From Opitutia bacterium KCR 482 (GTDB lineage: Bacteria > Verrucomicrobiota > Verrucomicrobiia > Opitutales > Intestinicryptomonadaceae), in assembly GCA_029269845.2 (NCBI GenBank), contig CP149973.1, positions 2,070,001 to 2,102,000 of the forward strand: a DNA stretch of 32,000 nt, written 5' to 3'. The first letter of the stretch is position 1. Each line of letters starts with the position of its first letter. Position numbers and translations under genes: made by a program. Of this stretch, positions 6,047-28,615 are shown piece by piece. Under the pieces are notes generated by a model. That model had not been told where the DNA came from. It saw only the letters and a program-made list of their open reading frames with translations, and made no database searches.

Positions 6047-6940
6047 ATGGACGGCAAATATTACAAGGTTTTGGGCGGAAAAGGGCTTTCGCCGTGCACG
6101 CTTTTCGACTACACTCCGTTTCTGCCAAAGGACGGCAAGGCGGGGGCGTGGCTTCCCGAAATCGACTCCGCGAAAATGTCGTCCGACGGCTACTATGTGT
6201 CGAAGTACTGGAACATGTGGTATTCGGAGGGCGCGAGGATTTACGAGGTCGAAATAGACGGCGCGGACGCCTCGGGCCGCTACGCCGTGGAGGACCAGAT
6301 TTGCTGCCGCAGAATCCGCCTTCTGCGCGACGCCACCGAAGAGCTTCTGCCGCTTCTGCGCGACGCAAATTTCAATTTGGGAGAGTCGAATACGGGCGAA
6401 CGCAACATCGGCTCTTTCAACACGGGCGAGCGCAACTTGGGCAAGCGCAACACCGGCAAACTAAATTCGGGCGACTTCAACACGGGCGACAACAACACGG
6501 GCATCGACAACGTCGGCGACAAAAACGTCGGCAGCGCGAACGTCGGCAGCCTGAACATTGGGCACTCGAACACGGGCGACGGCAACGTCGGCAGCTACAA
6601 TTCGGGGCACTATAATAAGGGGAACGCAAATTCGGGAAGCTTCAACGCGGGCAACCGCAATTCGGGCAAATGGAATTTGGGCAGCTACAACGCGGGTTTT
6701 TTCAACACGCGCGACGCTCCGCTTTACATGTTCGACAAGCCCGTGGAAAACCTCAAAGCCCCGCAGGTCGTCCTGCCGAAATGGCTTAATTCGCCAAATC
6801 CGCGCGATTCGTTCGAATCCGCCGCGCCCGCCGACATCGCAAAAACCCTCCAACTTCCGAATTTCGACTATGCCGTGTTCGAGAAAATCACGGGAATTTC
6901 GAAGGCGGATTTCGACCGCAAGCTTGACGGCGAAAAGTAG
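6047..6940 (+). CDS. Repeat protein: ~105-aa N-terminal domain, 22 consecutive xxNxG pentads, ~75-aa C-terminal tail; function unknown
   Basis: ATG at 6047. Residues 108-217 read NFNLG ESNTG ERNIG SFNTG ERNLG KRNTG KLNSG DFNTG DNNTG IDNVG DKNVG SANVG SLNIG HSNTG DGNVG SYNSG HYNKG NANSG SFNAG NRNSG KWNLG SYNAG, then FFNTR. No signal peptide. Confidence 0.8.
   Translation: MDGKYYKVLGGKGLSPCTLFDYTPFLPKDGKAGAWLPEIDSAKMSSDGYYVSKYWNMWYSEGARIYEVEIDGADASGRYAVEDQICCRRIRLLRDATEELLPLLRDANFNLGESNTGERNIGSFNTGERNLGKRNTGKLNSGDFNTGDNNTGIDNVGDKNVGSANVGSLNIGHSNTGDGNVGSYNSGHYNKGNANSGSFNAGNRNSGKWNLGSYNAGFFNTRDAPLYMFDKPVENLKAPQVVLPKWLNSPNPRDSFESAAPADIAKTLQLPNFDYAVFEKITGISKADFDRKLDGEK
6368..6712 (+). repeat. In-frame 15-nt periodic coding repeat (xxNxG pentads x22-23)
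   Basis: AAC/AAT-NNN-GGC recurs every 15 nt. Repeats are degenerate at the DNA level, so this is not a recent expansion. Confidence 0.85.
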
Positions 6941-8847: not shown

Positions 8848-9273
8848 TTGAATGTTTCGCAGACTTTCGTTCTCGACTTTCGAAAGACGGCCAGCGCGAA
8901 TTTGAGCATTGCTTCCTCCGCAGTGCTTACCGTCGCCAGCTGGTATGTGCACGAAAATATTGCCGATACCGCCGCTCCAACAGCGGTTGTTTTGAACGAC
9001 TTTGTTTCCAACAGCATTTTTCTCGCCGATTCGGCAATTACAGCGTACGACATTTCCGACGACGGCGTTTTGAGCGTATCGTATACCCAAGGCACGCAAG
9101 TGAAGAGGCAGAATTTCTCGTTCCTCGACAAAAACGGCGACATTATCGCCATGAAGCTTGTTGACGGCGTCGGCGGCAAATACCTCTCGACAGCGATTCC
9201 CGAACCCGCCGAATGGGCGGCGGTTTTCGGCGCGCTCGCCTTGGGCTTTGCGGTCTGCCGCAGAAGACGCTAA
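8848..9273 (+). CDS. PEP-CTERM domain protein fragment (141 aa) lacking a signal peptide; possible 5'-truncated gene remnant
   Basis: C-terminus IPEPAEWAAVFGALALGFAVCRRRR matches PEP motif + TM helix + basic tail. The tail region is paralogous to the C-terminus of the 26747-28615 protein. The only in-frame start is TTG 8848, there is no N-terminal hydrophobic leader, and an in-frame stop lies just upstream. Confidence 0.5.
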   Translation: MNVSQTFVLDFRKTASANLSIASSAVLTVASWYVHENIADTAAPTAVVLNDFVSNSIFLADSAITAYDISDDGVLSVSYTQGTQVKRQNFSFLDKNGDIIAMKLVDGVGGKYLSTAIPEPAEWAAVFGALALGFAVCRRRR

Positions 9274-9284
9274 AACGCCTTCAC

Positions 9285-10039: not shown

Positions 10040-12187
10040 ATGGAACAGAAATACAGCGTAGAGGTTAAAGACCTCGGCATAACAATCTCGACGGGAACAA
10101 TCGCAAAACAGGCGAACGGTTCCGTCACAATCAGCTTGGGAGAAACGACGCTCCTCGTCAACGCGACCGCCGCAGGCGCGCTCCGCGACGGGCAGGACTT
10201 CTTTCCCCTTACCGTCGATTACCGCGAAACTTTCTCGGCGGCGGGCAAATTCCCCGGCGGCTACTTCAAGCGCGAAGGCCGTCCGAGCGAAAAGGAAATC
10301 CTCACTTCGCGCCTTTGCGACCGTCCGCTTCGCCCGCTCTTCCCCAAGGGCTTCATGAACGAAGTTCAGGTTATCGGTCTGCTCCTCTCCGCCGACATGG
10401 TTAACGAGCCCGACATTCTCATGGTAAACGGCGCGTCGGCCGCAATGCTCATTTCCGACATTCCGTGGAACGGCCCCGTCGGCTGTATCCGTCTCGGCGA
10501 AATCGACGGCCAGTTCGTCGTAAACCCCACGCACGAGCAAATGCTCGACTCTACCCTCGACCTCATCTACGTCGGCAACGAGCGCGAAATGATGATGATT
10601 GAAGGTTCGGCGGAACAGATTCCCGTTGACCGCTTTGTCGAAGCCCTCGAATTTGCGCAGAAGGAAATCCAGAAGATTATCGACGCGCAAAAGGAGCTTG
10701 CAAAGCTCTGCGGCAAGCAGAAAAAGGAATTTCCGCTCATCGTCTGCAAGCCCGAAATTCTCGACATGTGCAAGGAATTTGTCGGCGGCAGACTGCTCGA
10801 AGCCGTCTTCCAGGACAACAAGCTCAAGCGTCAGGCAGACGTCGACGCGCTCATGAACGAAACCGCCGAAGCCGTCAAGGCGAAAATCGGCGAAGAGGAA
10901 TTCGACATGGCGCAAATCAAAATGGCGTTTGAAGTTCTCCAAGAGGAAGTCTACCGCGAAAACATTCTCGACGCGGGCAAGCGTTGCGACGGCCGCTCCT
11001 ACACCGACCTCCGCCCCATTTGGTGCAAGACCAACGTTTTGCCCCGCGTTCACGGAAGCGCGATTTTCACCCGCGGCGAAACTCAGGCTCTCGTCATGAC
11101 CACCCTCGGCACGAGCAAGGACTTTCAGGAGCTTGACGGACTCACGGGAGGCACAAAGCAAAAGTCGTTCATTCTGCACTACAACTTCCCGCCTTACTCG
11201 GTCGGCGAAACGGGCCGCTTCGGCACTCCCGGACGCCGCGAAATCGGGCACGGCGCGCTGGCGGAACGCTCGCTTCTGCCCGTTCTACCCTCGGAGGACG
11301 AATTCCCCTACGCAATCCGCGTCGTTTCCGAAATCATGGAGTCGAACGGTTCGACCTCCATGGCTTCCGTCTGCGGCGGCTGCCTTAGCCTCATGGACGC
11401 GGGCGTTCCGATTGAAACCCCCGTCGCTGGCATCAGCTGCGGCTTGGTAACGCGCTTCGACGAAAACGGCAAGCTGCTCAAGCACGTCGTTCTCACCGAC
11501 ATCATCGGCGCGGAAGACCATTTCGGCGACATGGACTTCAAAATCTGCGGCACAAAGAACGGCATCACGGGCTTCCAACTCGACCTCAAAATTCAGGGTC
11601 TGCCCATGGACATCGCAAAGGAGGCAATCTACCGCAACCGCGACACCAGAATGCAGATTCTCGACATTATGAAGGCGGAAATCGAAAAGCCGAACGCCGA
11701 GCTGAAACCCACCGCGCCCCGCATCAAGTCTCTTCAAATCGACCCCGACAAAATCGGCATGCTCATCGGCCCCGGAGGCAAGAACATTCGCCGCATAGTC
11801 GAAGTTTCCGGTGCGCAAATCGACGTCGACGACGACAATCCCGGACGCGTTCTCGTCTACGCAACCAGCGCGGACTCCATGAACAGGGCTGTTTCCGAAA
11901 TCGAGCTTGTAACGGGCGAAATCGAAGTCGGCAAGACATACCGCGGCATTGTGCGTTCCATCAAGGAATTCGGCGCGTTTGTCGAATGTCTCCCCGGCAA
12001 GGAGGGTCTTGTGCACATCTCCGAGTTGGCGGACTTCCGCGTAAACAAGACCGAGGACGTTTGCAAGCTTGGCGACGAAATCATTGTCAAGTGCATTGGC
12101 ATTGACGACAAGGGCCGCGTAAAGCTTTCGCGCCGCGCGGCGCTCTGCGAGCAGCAAGGTATACCCTACGAACAGCGTGCAAGGTAG
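10040..12187 (+). CDS. pnp: Polyribonucleotide nucleotidyltransferase (PNPase)
   Basis: 715 aa: two RNase PH-like domains, a KH domain ([15 protein letters not shown]) and an S1 domain ([19 protein letters not shown]). ATG at 10040. Confidence 0.95.
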
Positions 12188-12252: not shown

Positions 12253-12290
12253 AAGGGGGCAGTACGTAAGTACAGCCCCCTTCCTTTTTC
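12253..12290 (+). terminator. pnp intrinsic terminator
   Basis: Stem GGGGGCAGTAC (12255-65) / GTACAGCCCCC (12270-80): 10 bp plus one mismatch, loop GTAA, followed by TTCCTTTTTC. Confidence 0.65.
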
Positions 12291-12326: not shown

Positions 12327-12436
12327 GCAGAACCGCGCAGGGATATTTGCGGATTGCCGAGGTTTTTTAATTTTAGTGCGCGATTTCATCGCGCGGTAGA
12401 TTTTGGGTTTTTTTTAGGATACCTGACGGAGGAAGT
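12327..12436 (+). repeat. Copy A of a ~110-bp intergenic direct repeat
   Basis: GCAGAACCGCGC...GCGGATTGCCGAGG...TAGTGCGCGATTTCATCGCGCGGTAGATTTT..T-run..AGGATACCTGACGGAG. Contains the perfect hairpin GCGCGAT-TTC-ATCGCGC (12378-12394). Confidence 0.8.
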
Positions 12437-12682
12437 TGCGGGCAGGGATTTTTTTGTTTTTTTAGGTAGCCTGACGGAGTGAAGTAGGGGGCTGGGGTTT
12501 TTATTTTTAGGTTTTGTTTTTTAGGATACCTCGCGGGAAAAGTTTTGGGGCGAGTGTGTATGTAAATTGGGCAGAACCGCGCTGGGAAGTTGGCGGATTG
12601 CCGAGGGTTTATTTATTTTAGTGCGCGATTTCATCGCGCGGTAGATTTTTGGTTTTTTTTAGGATACCTGACGGAGTGAAGA
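12416..12682 (+). repeat. Four dispersed copies of a 22-mer AGGATACCTGACGGAGKGAAGW, each preceded by a T-run
   Basis: Copies start at 12416, 12464 (AGGTAGCCTGACGGAGTGAAGT), 12523 (degenerate AGGATACCTCGCGGGAAAAGT) and 12661. Spacing is 48, 59 and 138 bp. Each is followed by a G-rich tract. Confidence 0.75.
12571..12682 (+). repeat. Copy B of the ~110-bp intergenic direct repeat
   Basis: Roughly 90% identical by eye to copy A, 244 bp downstream of it. Same hairpin at 12623-12639. Confidence 0.8.
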
Positions 12683-12729
12683 GTTGTGTCTGTGCAGGTG
12701 GCTTCTTTTTATTTTTCAGGTCATATATG

Positions 12730-12774: not shown

Positions 12775-13371
12775 TTATTTTACAATCAGGCAGACTTGGC
12801 AGCCTGGGCCGTGCACGCCCTCCACGAGCACTCCCTCGACGTCGGTCGTTTTTGACGGGGCGGCGACGTATATTGCGTAGGGGCAATCCACCGTCTTTTC
12901 GAGCGCGTCGTATATCGTTTGTTCGATATCGCTTTCTTTCAGCACTGCGACGTGTATCCACGGCGCGATTGTATCGAGTCTGTCGGCGGTATCCTTGTCT
13001 TTTAGCACTATTGCGCCGCTTTCGGCTATTGCCATCGACGCTTTGCTGATTCCGAAGTCGTATTCGTCGGGGTTGTTGCGGTCGAACTCCCTGTCGAGTT
13101 TGAAGAAGTTTTCCAGTCCGAATGTATTGTCGATTTTTGCGTCGGCGACTCCCCGTTTACAGCCCTTGTCTTTGAGGAATGCAACCAGCGCTTCCGCGCT
13201 TTCGACCACGTTTCCGTGGCTTGCCAGAAAGTTCCGCACAAACGCCTCTTTCGGCGTTCCCGCGATTGCGGGGTTCGACACCGTGTCCTCCTTCGAAAAC
13301 TTGGGAAGTTCGGCTTTCGGGCGCGATTTTTCCGCGTCTTTTACCGTGTTTATAAAAGCGTTTTTATCCAT
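12775..13371 (-). CDS. lutC: Lactate utilization protein C (LUD domain, YkgG family)
   Basis: 198 aa. GISKASMAIAESGAIVL...DRLDTIAPWIHVAVL... is typical of the LUD/YkgG family. Overlaps the lutB stop by 8 nt. Confidence 0.8.
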   Translation of the reverse strand: MDKNAFINTVKDAEKSRPKAELPKFSKEDTVSNPAIAGTPKEAFVRNFLASHGNVVESAEALVAFLKDKGCKRGVADAKIDNTFGLENFFKLDREFDRNNPDEYDFGISKASMAIAESGAIVLKDKDTADRLDTIAPWIHVAVLKESDIEQTIYDALEKTVDCPYAIYVAAPSKTTDVEGVLVEGVHGPGCQVCLIVK

Positions 13372-17163: not shown

Positions 17164-18234
17164 ATGGACGTTTTTTACGAAAAAATCATGAGGCCGATTC
17201 TGTTTTCGCAGAATCCCGAATTTGCCCACGATATGGCACTCAAAGCCATGCAGGTTGTCTCCGCAGTTCCCCCGCTGAGAATGGCGATGGAATACCTCAA
17301 CCTCGTCAAAACGCAAAAACCCGTAAAGGTTTTCGGGCTTGAATTTCCCAACCGCGTCGGGCTTGCCGCGGGCTTCGACAAAGACGCGTACGTCTGGCGC
17401 GCCGCGCCCGCATTCGGCTTCGGACACGTCGAAATCGGCACGGTCTCGAAACTCAAACAGGCGGGGAACCCCAAGCCGCGCATGTTCCGCTACCCCTTCG
17501 CCGAGGCGGTCGTAAACTCGTGCGGATTTCCGAACGACGGCGCGGAGGAAATCTCCAAAAGGCTCGCATCGGTTCTCGACGGCAACCGCTCGCTGACGAA
17601 AAAATGCCCGCTCGGCGTAAATATCGGGAAGTCGAAAATCACCCCCCTCGAAGAGGCGGCGGAAGACTACCTTTTCAGCTTCAACGCCCTTGCCGACTAT
17701 GCCGACTTCTTTGTAATCAACGTCAGCAGCCCGAACACTCCCGAACTCCGCAAATTGCAGGGCAGGGAATTTCTGCCCAACCTCTTGGGCACGGTAAATT
17801 CGGCGAACATAGACCGTTCCAAAAAACTCGGCGTTCCGCGAATCCCGATAATTCTGAAAATCGCGCCCGATTTGACCTTTGCGGAAATCGACTCAATCCT
17901 CTCCGTGCTCTTCGAGTTGAAGCTCGACGGCATTTGCGCCACGAACACGACAATCAACCGCGACGCCTACCCGCAAATGGAAAAGAACGGCGGCATGAGC
18001 GGCGCGCCGCTTTTCGAGAAGTCGCTCGAAATCGTGAAATACATCTCGCAGGCGACCGACGGAAAACTGCCGATTATCGGCGTGGGCGGCATTACCAACG
18101 CCGACAGGGCGGGACGCATGATGAACGCGGGGGCAAGTCTTGTTCAAATCTATACGGGAATGATTTACAGAGGGCCGTTCTATGCGCGTTCCCTCGCGAA
18201 ATCACTGCTGTGGCGGGATTGCAACTGGCTCTGA
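17164..18234 (+). CDS. pyrD: Dihydroorotate dehydrogenase (quinone), class 2
   Basis: 356 aa with GLAAGFDKD, GHVEIGTV, NVSSPNTPELR (Ser catalytic base, class 2) and GVGGI. ATG at 17164. Confidence 0.9.
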   Translation: MDVFYEKIMRPILFSQNPEFAHDMALKAMQVVSAVPPLRMAMEYLNLVKTQKPVKVFGLEFPNRVGLAAGFDKDAYVWRAAPAFGFGHVEIGTVSKLKQAGNPKPRMFRYPFAEAVVNSCGFPNDGAEEISKRLASVLDGNRSLTKKCPLGVNIGKSKITPLEEAAEDYLFSFNALADYADFFVINVSSPNTPELRKLQGREFLPNLLGTVNSANIDRSKKLGVPRIPIILKIAPDLTFAEIDSILSVLFELKLDGICATNTTINRDAYPQMEKNGGMSGAPLFEKSLEIVKYISQATDGKLPIIGVGGITNADRAGRMMNAGASLVQIYTGMIYRGPFYARSLAKSLLWRDCNWL

Positions 18235-18260
18235 CGGCGCGTGAAAGCACCAGTCTAAGG

Positions 18261-18735
18261 GCGTTTCGCGCACGTCCCAGACCGCTTACATACGCCAAGT
18301 ATGCTACGCGCCCTGTGCCGTGCGCAAAGCCGCCCTTATACTGGCACTTTGACGCGCCTAACAAATGAGCGCATGGCGCGGAAGATTTTAAGTTGTGCTG
18401 GGAGAAAAGTTAAATAGAGCGTTTCGCGAGTGTCTCAGACTGCTCGCGTACGTTAGTACGCCACGCACCCTGAGCCACTCGCAAAGCCGCCCTTATACTG
18501 GCACTTTGACGCGCCTAACAAGTGAGCGCATGGCGCGGAAGATTTTAAGTTGTGCTGGGAGAAAAGTTAAATAGAGCGTTTCGCGAGTGTCTCAGACTGC
18601 TCGCGTACGTCAGTACGCCACGCACCCTGAGCCACTCGCAAAGCCACTCTTATAGGGGCATTTTGACGCCCCTAACAAATGAGCGCACGGCGCGGAAGAT
18701 TTTTAGAATGCGCTGGGAGAAAAGCTGGGTTGATT
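18261..18735 (+). repeat. Tandem array: three head-to-tail copies of a ~157-nt element
   Basis: Each copy begins GCGTTTCGCG, at 18261, 18419 and 18576. Copies 2 and 3 are nearly identical. Copy 1 shares the 3' ~90 nt almost exactly and has a diverged 5' ~65 nt. Confidence 0.9.
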
Positions 18736-18738
18736 GGT

Positions 18739-18780
18739 AAGCGGAGAATCTGTGTTTTGGGATTTCCGCTTTTTTATTTT
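18739..18780 (+). terminator. Intrinsic terminator closing the tandem-repeat region
   Basis: Stem AGCGGAGAATC (18740-50) / GATTTCCGCT (18761-70): 10 bp with one bulged G, followed by TTTTTATTTT. Confidence 0.75.
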
Positions 18781-18784
18781 TATC

Positions 18785-19057
18785 CGCGCAAAGCGCGTCT
18801 ATTTTAATTTGTTTCTCGCAAACCAAAAAGATTTTTCAACGCCAGTAATTGGCGAAGCCAATACGGACTAATACAGAAAAGGCGCGGGTATACCCGCGCC
18901 GCTTAATCACTACGAGGAACGAAGTTCCGACGACTGGTGCACCTTGCGCCCAGCCTTGCGGGGAGCGGGTGGAGAATTTTGCAAAGCGAAATCCACCCCT
19001 GGGGGCGAAGCCCCCGAGACCCGACCGGCGCGGCTCGCGCCCGACGCGGCTCGCGTC
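18785..19057. other. Cluster of short perfect GC-rich hairpins with 3-nt loops
   Basis: CGCGC-AAA-GCGCG (18785-97); ATTGGC-GAA-GCCAAT (18848-62); GGAAC-GAA-GTTCC (18916-28); GGGTGGA...TCCACCC (18967-98); GGGGGC-GAA-GCCCCC (19001-15); GGCGCG-GCT-CGCGCC (19027-41); GACGCG-GCT-CGCGTC (19043-57). Confidence 0.8.
18872..18900 (-). terminator. Intrinsic terminator for the PhoD-like gene transcript (about 155 nt 3' UTR)
   Basis: 20-nt perfect palindrome GGCGCGGGTATACCCGCGCC (18881-18900), followed on the minus strand by TTTTCTGTATT. Confidence 0.65.
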
Positions 19058-20348
19058 AGTCGAATTTTTTGAGGTCGGAATGCTTTATAGTGGTTTCGAA
19101 GAGACGCTCGCCTTTGGAGTCGAAGAAAGAGAGGGTTGCGGCGCGGTTGTTCTCGGCGCCTTCAATTTTCACCTGAGCAAAGGAGCGGGCTTTAACGGAA
19201 CTTCCGGGGACCCTGAAATAGTTCATCTCGGTAATTTCCTTGGCGGGGCGGTCGGTTAGCGGGCCGGCGGAAAGCTCGAAAACAGGGTACGCGCCAGCGC
19301 GAATGAAACGCGTGATTTCGGCATAACCTTTTTTTGCGGAAAGCACGATGACACCCTCTATCTTCTTGTCGGAGAGGAACGCCAAGAGGGCGTTGCGCTC
19401 GCGGCTCGCAAACGTGAAATTTTCGGGGCTTTCCACGGGGTTTGCGACAGGTGTGTTCATCACAATGAATTTGAAAGTCGCCTTGGAGTTGAGCAGGGCG
19501 GAGAAAAGCCAGCGCATCTGCGCGTCGCCGAGCCTTACGGGGCGGTCGTTTTTGTAGTCGAGGTTCGAACTGTTCGAGAAGTCGTCGAGAACGAAGAAGT
19601 CGGCGTCGGCATAGGAGAACGAGTACGCGCGGGAGGAGCTTTCGGCGGCTTGCGGGTTGCACCAAAATTCGCCGAAAACGTCGATGTGGTTTTTCGCGCC
19701 CGCAACGGAGGAGTCGGCAAGCGTGTTCGCGCCTAAAACGCCGTAGTTCGCCTGCGAGTTCAGCAGGGCGCGGGCGGGCTTGAACGCGCGGAAATCGGCA
19801 AGCCGCGACGCCATGGCAAAGCGCGAGGCGGAGTCGGCATGCCTGTAAACGTTCTGCGCGCCTACCCAAAGCGCGAACGCGGGCGACTTGTTCTTCGCGG
19901 CGTCGAGAATTTCGAAATCGCCGCCGGGGGTTCTGAAAGGCTCGTCGAACTTGGGATCGTTGACGTGGTTTGCTCCGAGCACGACAAAAGAGAAGTCGGG
20001 CGGGGGCGTGCGTCCCTTGTAGTCGGGAGCTGTGGCGATTTTTCCCGCCGAAGAGCTTTTGCCGTCGGAGACAACATAAGTGTACTCCGTCGAGGGGGAC
20101 AGCCCTTCAAGCGCGATTTTCGCGACCGCGGGGTTCTGCGCACCGCCAATCGGCAGGATTTTCGCGTCGAACTTTTTTTCGGGATTTTTCGATTCGAAGA
20201 ATTGCGCCGAAGCGTTTGCGGCGGGCGTGTCGAAACGCGCCCAGACGGCGGCTTCGCGGACGTCGGCGAAGCCCGCCATTGTGGAGATTTCGGCGTGGGC
20301 GCAAATCGCCGCGGCGAGCAGAATGGAGGTCGTTGCGGTTGTTTTCAT
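19056..20348 (-). CDS. Secreted PhoD-like (alkaline phosphatase D family) protein with apparently degenerate metal-binding motifs
   Basis: Signal peptide MKTTATTSILLAAAICAHA. The N-terminal beta-sandwich-like part ends in LSPSTEYTYVV (PhoD_N-like). The overall layout resembles Bacteroidetes-type PhoD. However, LWVGAQNVY, YGVLGANTLADS and VLSAKKGYAEI occupy the positions where I expect GDxxY, WDDHD and GDRH. Confidence 0.55.
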   Translation of the reverse strand: MKTTATTSILLAAAICAHAEISTMAGFADVREAAVWARFDTPAANASAQFFESKNPEKKFDAKILPIGGAQNPAVAKIALEGLSPSTEYTYVVSDGKSSSAGKIATAPDYKGRTPPPDFSFVVLGANHVNDPKFDEPFRTPGGDFEILDAAKNKSPAFALWVGAQNVYRHADSASRFAMASRLADFRAFKPARALLNSQANYGVLGANTLADSSVAGAKNHIDVFGEFWCNPQAAESSSRAYSFSYADADFFVLDDFSNSSNLDYKNDRPVRLGDAQMRWLFSALLNSKATFKFIVMNTPVANPVESPENFTFASRERNALLAFLSDKKIEGVIVLSAKKGYAEITRFIRAGAYPVFELSAGPLTDRPAKEITEMNYFRVPGSSVKARSFAQVKIEGAENNRAATLSFFDSKGERLFETTIKHSDLKKFD

Positions 20349-26703: not shown

Positions 26704-26740
26704 TATCGGGTGTGCCCCGATACCGTTTTTGAGGGTTTAA
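26704..26740. terminator. Bidirectional intrinsic terminator after the large PEP-CTERM gene
   Basis: 10-bp stem CGGTATCGGG (26711-20) / CCCGATACCG (26726-35), flanked by A6 and T5. Confidence 0.75.
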
Positions 26741-26746
26741 GCCTTT

Positions 26747-28615
26747 TTACTTGCGGCGGCGGTATACCGCCAAGCCGAGGGCGATTGCCCCGAAGATTGA
26801 CGCCCATTCGGCGGGTTCGGGAATCGCGGAGTTCGCGAGGTAGCCGCTTGCGTCTACGCTCCAAAGTCCGTCGAGCAACTTGCCGGCCTTATCGTAGGCT
26901 ACGAGCGTGATTTTGTCGCCCGCCGAGATTTCGAATTCGCCGCTGCTGATGAGCTCCGTCATCCAGCCGTCAACCTTGACGAGTCCGTTTTCGAAGTCGA
27001 GGAACGTGAGTGCGAAGTCCGTGCCTTTTGCGTCCGGTTGGTATGCGGCAACGTTTGCGATGTGCAGTTCCGCGCCGTTGAGGTCTATTGACAACTGCGA
27101 CTTGCGCAGGGGGCGCAGGTTCTTGATGAAATAGGCTTCGCCGCAGTCTGTGAGAACGATTTTCGCGTCGGCGTTTTCGCTGAGGTCTTTTACGCAGATG
27201 TTTGTGTTGGACGCAAGGTTCGAGGCGTGCGAAAGTTCAAGCGTGCCTTTCGATTGCGAGAACATGATTAGGGGTGCGAGGATTTTCGACGTTGCGTCAA
27301 CCACAATCTTGCCGCCCGTAAGCCCGATGAACGAGTTTGTCGAGGTGTTGATTGTGCCGCCGTTTTTGAGCGTAATCGTCTTGCCTTCGTAGATGTTGAA
27401 CGCGTATGTGCTGTTTGTCGCGGTCGTATTGATGAGGCTGCCGCCGTCTACCAAGATGCTTTTGTACGATACGCTTTCGGAGCTGTGCGCCGCGCCTTTC
27501 GTCTTGATGTCGAGCATGCCCTTTACCGTGATGTCGCCTCTGATTAACATTGTGGAGCCGTCGCCGGTAAGCGTTTTGTTTGAAAAGTCGAAGGTTGTCT
27601 TTGCGCCGCTGTCGATTGTCAGCTGCGTGTTGTCTTCCATTACGATTCTGTCGGTCGTGAAGTCGCCCTTGATTGTCAGTTCCGCAGCTTCATAGGACGA
27701 GCCGCTTTCGAAAGTCGTCGCGGTTTTCAGCACGAGGTATTGCGCGGCGAGGTCGGAGGACGCCGTAAGGGTGTTGTTTTTGCCGTAGAATCTTACCGTG
27801 CCCTGCGATGTTCCGTCTTTTGCGAGGTTCGAGCCGCCGAGGACGATGTTCGAGTTTTCATACACGCTCAGACCGTCCGACAAAAGCGAGCCGCTCGACG
27901 TGAAGTTCGAGCCGTAGACGTTGATTACGTTAGCAGACACAGTGCCCGTGTTTTCAAAGTTCGTGTCGCGGAGTGTCATGGTGTTTGCGACATTGACTTT
28001 ACCCGCAACCGTCATTTTTGAATCCCACTCCATTTTGGACGGGTCGGAAAGGTTTTTGAATCTGCCGCTTACGTCGATCGATTTAATATTTGCGGTAATG
28101 CCTTCACCGATGTAAACCGTTCTGCCGTATCTGTTTCTTATATTTGCGCCACCCGAGGCCGCGTCGGTCGTTTCCAATTTAATCTCAACTTTCGAGGACG
28201 TGAAATTCATCGTGGCTTCGTTTTGGGAATCGCTGTTTGTGAAATTCAGTCCGAGCGAGTAGCTGCTGCTAAGCCCCGTGCTTGCGCTTGTAGTGTCGTT
28301 ATAGTCTACAAGATTGTTCGTAAAGGTAAGGGTTTTGCCGTTGAGGTCGAGGTTCAGATTGCAGTGGTCGCCGCCCGTTCCGGAAATTTTGAATCTTTGA
28401 AGAGTGAAGTCTTTGTCGGCAATAACGTAGCTGTCGGTCATATCGGTAGTTGTATTGCCGCCGTTGCCGTGCCATATGACTTCGCCAGCCGTTGTGCCGC
28501 CGCCGAACGAGCCCCAAGTGGACATTGCCGTGGGGTTTTCCTTGTCGGCAGAGCCTTTTTCCGCAAACGCGGCGGTGGCTGCGAGCGCGGAGAGTAATAT
28601 TAGATACTTTTTCAT
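26747..28615 (-). CDS. Large secreted PEP-CTERM-anchored repeat protein (predicted beta-helix / autotransporter-like passenger repeats)
   Basis: Signal peptide MKKYLILLSALAATAAFA. About 550 aa of Gly/Asn/Thr/Ser-rich beta-strand repeats. C-terminus IPEPAEWASIFGAIALGLAVYRRRK. Confidence 0.85.
   Translation of the reverse strand: MKKYLILLSALAATAAFAEKGSADKENPTAMSTWGSFGGGTTAGEVIWHGNGGNTTTDMTDSYVIADKDFTLQRFKISGTGGDHCNLNLDLNGKTLTFTNNLVDYNDTTSASTGLSSSYSLGLNFTNSDSQNEATMNFTSSKVEIKLETTDAASGGANIRNRYGRTVYIGEGITANIKSIDVSGRFKNLSDPSKMEWDSKMTVAGKVNVANTMTLRDTNFENTGTVSANVINVYGSNFTSSGSLLSDGLSVYENSNIVLGGSNLAKDGTSQGTVRFYGKNNTLTASSDLAAQYLVLKTATTFESGSSYEAAELTIKGDFTTDRIVMEDNTQLTIDSGAKTTFDFSNKTLTGDGSTMLIRGDITVKGMLDIKTKGAAHSSESVSYKSILVDGGSLINTTATNSTYAFNIYEGKTITLKNGGTINTSTNSFIGLTGGKIVVDATSKILAPLIMFSQSKGTLELSHASNLASNTNICVKDLSENADAKIVLTDCGEAYFIKNLRPLRKSQLSIDLNGAELHIANVAAYQPDAKGTDFALTFLDFENGLVKVDGWMTELISSGEFEISAGDKITLVAYDKAGKLLDGLWSVDASGYLANSAIPEPAEWASIFGAIALGLAVYRRRK

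Follow-up and report, generated by a model that had tools for sequence, protein, structure and literature searches.

The window analysed here is a 32,000-nucleotide (nt) stretch of the genome of Opitutia bacterium KCR 482 (contig CP149973.1, positions 2,070,001 to 2,102,000), in which pyrD, the gene for dihydroorotate dehydrogenase, is followed by a tandem array of a hairpin-forming, or foldback, repeat. A preliminary description of this DNA, made from the letters alone, had reported three head-to-tail copies at 18261-18735 and had taken them for a novel structured RNA. The tandem arrangement itself is borne out by two programs: TRF finds a single array at 18261-18724, with a period of 157, 2.9 copies and 89% matches, and the MAFFT alignment of the three copies shows a mean column identity of 91%, with copies 2 and 3 near-identical and copy 1 differing over its first ~65 nt. 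However, the boundaries of the unit had been placed in the wrong register. Because the lead-in upstream of copy 1 is nearly the reverse complement of the invariant core of the repeat (GGCGCGTGAAAGCACC matches the reverse complement of GGCACTTTGACGCGCC at 13/16 positions in the window), the natural unit is 18236-18358, a single 123-nt foldback which starts 2 nt past the pyrD stop and whose outer ~25 base pairs (bp) had been missed. The features of the locus are as follows.

17164-18234, plus strand: pyrD (dihydroorotate dehydrogenase; Pfam PF01180, E=7.6e-70; C-terminus compared with 20 relatives).
18235-18951, plus strand: whole repeated composite of foldback array, terminator, spacer CGCCAGTAATTGGCGAAGCCAATACGGAC and opposing terminator, which recurs between other gene pairs.
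18236-18358, plus strand: foldback unit 1, the complete 123-nt basic element (full-length hairpin; covariance model 141.8 bits; near-identical or identical copies behind other genes).
18236-18260, plus strand: lead-in, or 5' inverted repeat, of unit 1, GGCGCGTGAAAGCACCAGTCTAAGG.
18261-18329, plus strand: inner hairpin of unit 1, which holds the helices P1 and P2 and the apical hairpin of the preliminary description.
18343-18358, plus strand: 3' inverted repeat of unit 1, GGCACTTTGACGCGCC.
18359-18418, plus strand: tail or junction module 1 (exit junction CGCGCC followed by TAA, covarying small hairpin and GRWAGWTTTTTAG at 9/10 loci).
18401-18515, plus strand: foldback unit 2, with its 5' arm from the preceding tail (covariance model 73.4 bits, E=1.3e-11, full model length).
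18516-18575, plus strand: tail or junction module 2 (from the alignment of the copies).
18557-18672, plus strand: foldback unit 3 (covariance model 75.6 bits, E=4.6e-12).
18673-18738, plus strand: terminal tail variant (GAAGATTTTTAGAATGCGCTGGGAGAAAAGCTGGGTTGATTGG; same terminal form in other strains and at other loci).
18739-18780, plus strand: intrinsic-terminator-like hairpin and T-run closing the array (from its fold; same sequence after the element at loci L094, L098 and L102).
18881-18900, minus strand: terminator-like hairpin GGCGCGGGTATACCCGCGCC followed by TTTTCTG, for the convergent PhoD-like gene (terminator scan).
19056-20348, minus strand: convergent gene for a PhoD-like phosphatase at the far edge of the spacer (Pfam PF09423, E=3.1e-7; gene calls).

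The natural unit is a 122-123-nt imperfect palindrome, GGCGCGTGAAAG...CTTTGACGCGCC, which has inverted-repeat ends of 12-16 bp and is followed by a tail of ~35-60 nt carrying a small hairpin and a T-run, with TA usually present on both sides of the foldback. At the distant pyrD locus L027, where PyrD is 77% identical, the ends GGCGCGTCAA and TTGACGCGCC are complementary at 10/10 positions. In multi-unit arrays of the window type, the tail is ~60 nt long and comprises TAA, a small covarying hairpin, GAAGATTTT, GCTGGGAGAAAAG and a modified copy of the lead-in. In tail module 1 of the window, the TAA is accompanied by the small hairpin GCGC-ATG-GCGC (18369-18379), GGAAGATTTT (18380-18389) and GCTGGGAGAAAAG (18397-18409), and the GGCGCG...GTGCTGG of this module doubles as the 5' arm of the next unit. 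The modified lead-in thus is the 5' arm of the next foldback, and the covariance model therefore places units 2 and 3 at 18401-18515 and 18557-18672. Upstream, the C-terminus of PyrD is at its native position, and the stop codon TGA, correctly located before at 18232-18234, overlaps the 'GAC' that precedes the foldback. The units contain no conserved open reading frame (ORF), start codon or frame, and their lengths are not multiples of three, in agreement with the earlier view of the array as non-coding; a small ORF or a type I toxin was rejected on the same grounds, there being no start codon after GGGAGAAAAG.

The terminator that closes the array is part of a repeated composite, for which blastn finds 75-77% identity over 296-381 nt to L094, L098 and L102, with both terminators included. 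Additional GC-rich hairpins (GAGGAACGAAGTTCC, GGGGGCAAAGCCCCC and GGCGGGAGTTTTCGCGGTAGCGAAAACCGCC) crowd the 3' region of the PhoD-like gene, at 18900-19056 of the window and in the corresponding stretch of L001-L010. Two strongly differing alleles of this region are found among the strains, and in L007 part of it is duplicated (+~260 nt).

The inner helices had been assigned correctly, namely P1 (18268-18274 with 18319-18325; 18426-18432 with 18476-18482), P2 (18276-18280 with 18313-18317; 18434-18438 with 18470-18474), the apical hairpin at 18446-18461, the T/C difference between 18454 and 18611, and the closing hairpin with its T-run. When taken in the 157-nt register, the units fold better than shuffled sequences (z of -2.6 to -4.8 on the plus strand), and either strand of this hairpin folds about equally well, as is expected of any hairpin. 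In its natural register, unit 1 folds with -69.9 kcal/mol on the sense and -81.5 kcal/mol on the antisense strand, with z=-9.2 on both strands; full-length hairpins of the different variants range from -59 to -80 kcal/mol (sense) and from -74 to -90 kcal/mol (antisense). The tail module has no significant fold of its own (z=+0.6).

The element is not peculiar to pyrD. A scan of JGI metagenome contigs with its most invariant 19-mer, GGCACTTTGACGCGCCTAA, gave exact matches in 12 stretches, nine of which contain full units or short arrays, and five of these nine come from separate contigs of a single assembly. The element is preceded by no fewer than eight unrelated genes: pyrD, asd (aspartate-semialdehyde dehydrogenase), ahcY (AdoHcy hydrolase), lptF/G, the genes of an H+-pyrophosphatase (H+-PPase), an AraC-type regulator and a GNAT acetyltransferase, and one unknown gene. 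Among the loci in related gut Opitutales, the element is 70-94% identical, and the 123-nt copy behind asd in L102 is identical to the first pyrD unit of strain L011. The proposal of a structured RNA, or tandem RNA gene, specific to the pyrD locus fails on this recurrence behind unrelated genes.

The placement of the element relative to these genes is strict. Its orientation is that of the upstream gene in 8/8 independent contexts with a known upstream gene, and a common lead-in, ...T(A)G-AC-GGCGCGTGAAAGCACnnnnCTAAGG followed by GCGTTT..., places GGCGCG at a distance of just -1 to +2 nt from the stop codon. The element thus either abuts the stop codon or replaces the last codons of the gene and provides the stop itself. 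Three ORFs (AraC-type, GNAT and Asd) end inside or with element sequence. The AraC-type gene in L097 ends ...DGA-stop on the element's GAC GGC GCG TGA, and the GNAT protein in L099 ends ...FYGRGVKTPL-stop, the last eight codons and the TAA of which come from the lead-in, whereas its closest relative, which lacks a unit, ends ...FYYSIYNPHAAKKP-stop. Asd of L102 ends ...AELIAHGA-stop, whereas the Asd proteins of sister species, which are 87-94% identical, end ...AELIASEDAKK-stop, ...ASQK-stop or ...AQNDKA-stop, and the C-termini diverge exactly where lead-in-like sequence starts. No unit was found behind asd in the sister species by nhmmer at E<=1, a plain terminator being present instead, and plain terminators likewise occupy the GNAT and pyrD sites in sister species. 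At pyrD, most sister species have TAA and then an ordinary terminator or the next gene, and the end of PyrD is native in all relatives.

Lead-in and junction together carry stops in three frames in 5/10 copies and in two frames in 3 more. TA is found directly before (GAC)GGCGCG at 7/10 entries and directly after CGCGCC at 9/10 exits, and the sequence beyond the exit is itself repeated. A TAG stop created by the element was considered and rejected, since the frequency of TAG at the abutted genes (5/8) does not differ significantly from the background (11/30; p=0.24).

Other repeat modules occur in the same arrays. In L092, L093, L097 and L101, a module GGGCGTTTTCGGGGnTAAG...TTTTTCTCCGCGAACGCCCG, which forms a hairpin of ~45 nt, alternates with the foldback in some arrays. 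In L093, the TAA stop of a convergent gene is itself abutted by a truncated unit, so that repeats occupy the whole spacer between the two stop codons. A module ending in GCGGAT(T/A)GCCGAG and a GATTGGGAGGGGATTG(G/C)CGA module lie in or beside foldback units in L013 (11069-11360), in L014 (11069-11307) and at the end of the L097 array; the GCGGATWGCCG module is common only to neighbouring mosaic arrays. Right after the GGGCGCGTGAAAT lead-in behind pyrD, L014 carries a different tandem repeat of 43 nt in at least 4 copies, which runs to the end of the contig.

The known range of the element is narrow. The covariance model R1, searched against 88 sources (1.39 Mb) covering the pyrD loci of ~80 Opitutales genomes, matches the window species and L027 only, to which nhmmer adds an interrupted or degenerate copy in L013. 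In agreement with the preliminary statement that no known family is recognisable, Rfam 15 gives 0 matches in the whole window at the gathering score, and at E<=10 only two sub-threshold chance matches, both outside the units, within 18100-19100. No blastn match was obtained in E. coli ('distant' mode, 5,426 complete genomes), and none among 72,556 plasmid and 50,697 phage records. A phage association was rejected, as a 17-mer core yields one partial, chance-like match in IMG/VR. An integron attC site was also rejected: although GCCTAAC and GTTAAAT both occur, their complementarity is limited to 4 nt, and the neighbouring boxes are unpaired.

A PyrD protein of exactly this sequence is recorded in 401 blocks of metagenome assemblies, mostly from the human gut. 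The nearest genomes with a name belong to uncultured Opitutales/Opitutia (Verrucomicrobiota), UBA4654 being one of them. At this locus, eleven strains that share an identical PyrD were compared, and at least one unit is present in 11/11 of them. The spacer between pyrD and the PhoD-like gene measures 539, ~690-695, 822-849 or 1108 nt, corresponding to 1, 2, 3 or 4 units, and no extra copies lie within ±10 kb of pyrD in ten strains. The units themselves are highly variable, 26/31 being distinct across strains, and in their 5' half whole segments of ~31 nt and ~13 nt are swapped between strains, resulting in mosaic units. Contrary to the expectation that P1 and P2 would be kept in further homologues, the 5' arm of P1 is replaced and its 3' arm retained in several mosaics (unit 2 of L002, L003, L009 and L010, and units 2 and 4 of L007), which fold with only -20 to -25 kcal/mol, as compared with -26 to -35 kcal/mol in intact units. 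Strain L011 has a shorter unit of ~130 nt with a different junction. At the gene/element boundary, L004 (4066-4083) reads CTC TAA CGAGAC GGCGCG where the window (18232-18241) reads CTC TGA C GGCGCG; this 5-nt indel switches the pyrD stop between TAA and TGA and leaves the protein unchanged.

The compensatory substitutions described earlier for the inner stems are confirmed and extend over the whole element. In an alignment of sixteen non-identical units, which represent eight gene contexts and two species or more, RNAalifold predicts 44 pairs, 23 of which show double-sided compensatory changes, whereas slid controls have only 3-10 such pairs. On the named structure, 95.2% of the cells are paired, as compared with 80.8% in column shuffles (0/500), and the covariation score is 0.375, as compared with 0.117 in shuffles (0/500); when the partners are slid by 1-3 columns, pairing falls to 28-49%. 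The L027 copy has a wholly different 13-bp inner stem, which is perfectly complementary. The compensation and the controls together show that the palindrome is actively maintained along its whole length. However, compensatory changes of this kind are palindrome maintenance and do not establish an RNA gene: covariation does not discriminate between a selected RNA and a DNA foldback whose hairpin is required for mobilisation or mended by template switching.

As to transcription, no terminator lies between the pyrD stop and the array, and a strong one follows the array. Given this arrangement, the orientation bias and the sense-oriented terminators in tail and composite, the element would be co-transcribed with its upstream gene. 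The plus-strand transcript proposed before is therefore plausible as part of the pyrD message, although not as the product of a discrete small RNA (sRNA) gene. No sigma-70-like promoter was found on the plus strand within the units, by a consensus scan that may not suit Verrucomicrobia, and a sigma-54 promoter at TGGCAC-N-GC was rejected because its spacing is off by one. On the minus strand, a promoter-like TTAACT-17-TAAAAT is present in two junctions and absent from single-unit and terminal units.

Since the element is scattered through genomes and sited at stop codons, it is a new repeat family, not a new regulatory RNA gene, i.e., a previously undescribed family of a familiar kind of repetitive DNA, and it is probably mobile. 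Like MITEs (miniature inverted-repeat transposable elements), it is smaller than ~300 bp and without coding capacity, has terminal inverted repeats and occurs as dispersed copies in different contexts. The units are copies of a dispersed, apparently mobile repeat, which speaks against the preliminary interpretation. We thus interpret the array behind pyrD, with a probability of roughly 78%, as the local tandem amplification (variable number of tandem repeats, VNTR) of a dispersed, non-coding, MITE/ERIC-like foldback repeat of a narrow clade of gut Opitutales. The element may have arrived at its sites by transposition, with a transposase acting in trans, or by recombination of whole gene-end cassettes, and would afterwards have been amplified at pyrD through slippage or unequal crossing-over between units. 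It would be passively co-transcribed with pyrD as a long, hairpin-rich 3' untranslated region (UTR), ending at the terminator that it brought along, and the palindrome would be maintained for mobilisation, as a transcript hairpin, or for both, rather than for a dedicated trans-acting RNA.

Several observations weigh against this interpretation. An autonomous element with matching ends was not found, and the only transposase seen, of the IS1595 type in L111/L113, has none; IS1595 was accordingly rejected as autonomous partner. The TA flanks are not proven to represent a target duplication. A within-species pair of occupied and empty sites was not found within ±10 kb of pyrD in ten strains, and for the gene next to the GNAT gene in L099 the database contains no relative from the same species. 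In addition, pairing along the whole stem, combined with strict orientation and abutment to the stop codon, suggests that the hairpin may function for the host gene. Finally, the antisense strand folds 9-18 kcal/mol better than the sense strand in 16/16 variants, including the distant L027, which passive co-transcription of the sense strand does not explain.

The alternative that survives best, and that does not conflict with a mobile origin, is that the element benefits the host as a cis-acting 3'-UTR module on the upstream mRNA, with the number of its copies tuning expression. Such a module might block 3'-to-5' exonucleases, as REP elements do, provide a site for RNase III, as Correia and ERIC elements do, or interfere with terminating ribosomes. 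REP hairpins stabilise the mRNA that precedes them, and in E. coli a REP no more than ~15 nt away from a stop codon can stall ribosomes. The co-orientation in all eight contexts, the start no more than 2 nt from the stop, the sense-oriented terminators in tail and composite and the retention of full-stem pairing all speak for this explanation, and REPs, too, lie for the most part behind ORFs and are believed to function as RNA (PMC3733652). However, G.U wobble favours the antisense over the sense RNA, sense A.C (that is, antisense G.U) being found at 17 positions and in 81 cells and sense G.U at 7 positions and in 20 cells; moreover, sister species do without the element at the same genes, and broken-stem mosaics persist. 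We consider this function possible, at odds clearly below even.

A selected hairpin on the minus strand seems unlikely to us, either as single-stranded DNA (ssDNA) for an HUH/RAYT-like or other transposase, in the manner of REPINs, or as an antisense RNA over gene ends. The greater stability of the antisense hairpin in every variant is what would be expected from it, as is a tandem C.A/A.C mismatch of the sense strand (G.U/U.G in the antisense), which is conserved even in L027, and the promoter-like minus-strand sites in the junctions speak for it too. However, the strand asymmetry is suggestive only, with p=0.06 when counted by independent positions (17 vs. 7) and much of it owed to common ancestry, the ends carry no GTAG or CGTC tag, and the promoter-like sites are missing from units that stand singly or terminally. 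In three contexts the downstream gene is co-oriented, leaving nothing obvious to transcribe the minus strand.

A more specific conjecture, which we rate as doubtful in its entirety, is that of a 'gene-end cassette' which would home to stop codons, entering a coding sequence at its end or slightly inside it and in one orientation only, bring its own terminator and be handled as a hairpin of the antisense strand (ssDNA or RNA), with array length tuning the gene. Up to three frames would receive a stop from such a cassette (by TAG/TGA at the junction, by TGA at +7 and by TAA at +21), and its targeting would be linked to the termination of translation or transcription.

That the array consists of tandem genes for a novel trans-acting, plus-strand structured sRNA specific to pyrD, comparable to the LhrC, Qrr and PrrF arrays, is very improbable. 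The good folds of the units, the compensatory stems, the lack of an Rfam match and the terminator after the array speak for this idea. However, the same element is fused to the stop codons of at least eight unrelated genes, the units lack a recognisable plus-strand promoter, their number varies between 1 and 4, and wholesale exchange of the 'seed-like' 5' half occurs among strains of one species; in addition, mosaic units lose P1, and the conserved part is merely the other arm of the palindrome. A CRISPR-like or guide-RNA-like array of a conserved ~90-nt 'repeat' and variable ~31-nt 'spacers', to which the swapped 31-33-nt segments between GCGTTT and GTACGCCACGC that differ wholesale between strains bear some resemblance, can be dismissed, as the 'spacers' are one hairpin arm covarying with the opposite arm, a pairing pattern that refutes it, a search of 2.9 M viral contigs with one such segment found no match, the window has no cas or other effector genes, and the units are fused to the stop codons of unrelated genes.

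Among known repeats, the foldback comes nearest to ERIC-type MITEs and REP/BIME clusters. ERIC, or RU-1, elements are 127-bp MITE-like imperfect palindromes, which form stable stem-loops, have TA ends with a TA target duplication and are sometimes fused to the 3' ends of ORFs whose normal stop is lost (PMC2759123). With ERIC/IRU (RU-1) and RU-2/YPAL, the foldback shares a palindrome of ~125 nt that forms one stem-loop, inverted-repeat ends, TA termini, the lack of coding capacity, dispersal in transcribed intergenic regions and, at times, the fusion to ORF ends, which supplies new C-terminal residues and a stop. It differs from ERIC in sequence, there being no similarity by blastn in the 5,426 E. 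coli genomes, and in its host, a member of Verrucomicrobiota. ERIC furthermore occurs in either orientation without regularly abutting stop codons and is not typically found in head-to-tail arrays, unlike the foldback, which is co-oriented in 8/8 contexts at no more than 2 nt from the stop.

REPs are found mostly downstream of ORFs, between convergent or unidirectional genes, form clusters of alternating orientation and are thought to be transcribed (PMC3733652). The foldback is similar to REP/BIME and REPIN elements in being a palindrome downstream of ORFs, clustered with conserved linker motifs, mosaic and strain-variable in copy number, and, as for REPs, it is probably transcribed within the upstream mRNA and its hairpin pairing is kept (PMC3733652). 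However, REPs are 20-40 bp long with a terminal GTAG/CGTC (PMC3733652), whereas the foldback has 123 nt, ends in GGCGCG.../...CGCGCC and bears no tag. In the absence of both sequence homology and the GTAG/CGTC tag, the foldback is not a member of the ERIC or REP families.

Size, inverted-repeat ends, TA flanks and multiple copies are also common to the foldback and the Correia/NEMIS elements, from which it differs by covarying pairing over the whole element and by abutment to stop codons. These MITEs of Neisseria are 100-160 bp long, have terminal inverted repeats and TA flanks, occur in many copies without a transposase of their own and are co-transcribed into hairpins. In its head-to-tail amplification with strain-variable copy number, the foldback resembles BIME clusters and the MIRU-VNTRs of mycobacteria; the latter are likewise dispersed intergenic units of polymorphic copy number, which are oriented like the flanking genes and touch stop codons. 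MIRU-VNTR units, however, are 40-100 bp long, are not long palindromes and contain in-phase small ORFs, whereas foldback units, at 157/158 or ~130 nt, have lengths that three does not divide and lack a conserved ORF. Tandem sRNA arrays such as LhrC1-5, Qrr, PrrF1/2 and OmrA/B have a promoter and a terminator per unit, a conserved seed and one locus. The foldback shares with them head-to-tail repeats of ~100-160 nt with conserved hairpins, but it has no plus-strand promoter signal, its 'seed' half is hypervariable, and its copies are scattered and joined to the ends of genes. Neither so strict a co-orientation with the gene nor an abutment at 0-2 nt from its stop was found described for ERIC, REP or MITE elements, which also leave such a placement unexplained.

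We note three points of wider significance. First, compensatory substitutions of textbook quality and strong folds can arise in a family of palindromic repeats and do not on their own point to an RNA gene. Second, the foldback is a new repeat family in an abundant, uncultured Verrucomicrobial lineage of the human gut, and since its copy number varies between strains, it may serve as a VNTR marker for strain typing. Third, if its placement reflects targeting or function, it would be a new case in which mobile DNA remodels the ends of genes and their 3' UTRs.

Another mosaic repeat cluster, unrelated to the foldback array, lies at 12327-12700, between pnp (10040-12187, plus strand) and a lutC-like gene (12775-13371, minus strand). 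It has direct repeats of 244 nt, repeated TTTTTTAGGATACCTGACGGAG modules, and a hairpin, GCGCGAT-TTC-ATCGCGC, behind which come GGTAGATTTT and long T-runs. The preliminary description had counted it among the relatives of the pyrD array; it has no homology detectable by BLAST to that array or to related loci, and the two arrays share only a motif of ~14 nt, a small hairpin followed by GG(A/T)AGATTTT. The pnp gene has its own terminator (~12254-12290) upstream of the cluster, and strains differ in the length of the pnp-lutC spacer, which measures 343 to 962 nt. At positions 1-5300 of L111/L113, two strains of the window species, the pnp side is replaced by a mobile-element block encoding an IS1595-family DDE transposase, an ArdC-like protein, an AAA ATPase and DUF7192; the junction of this block lies inside the pnp-downstream cluster, which suggests that the cluster is a hotspot of insertion or rearrangement.

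Two further repeats of the window fall within genes. The 89-nt 'inverted repeat' at 9193-9281 (plus strand) and 26739-26827 (minus strand) reflects two genes on opposite strands which share a C-terminal coding segment (...IPEPAEWAAVFGALALGFAVCRRRR-stop), and this segment looks like a PEP-CTERM-type sorting signal rather than a non-coding repeat. At 6418-6556, 15-nt and 30-nt periodic repeats (CAACACGGGCGACxx) lie inside an ORF, which probably encodes a pentapeptide-type repeat protein.

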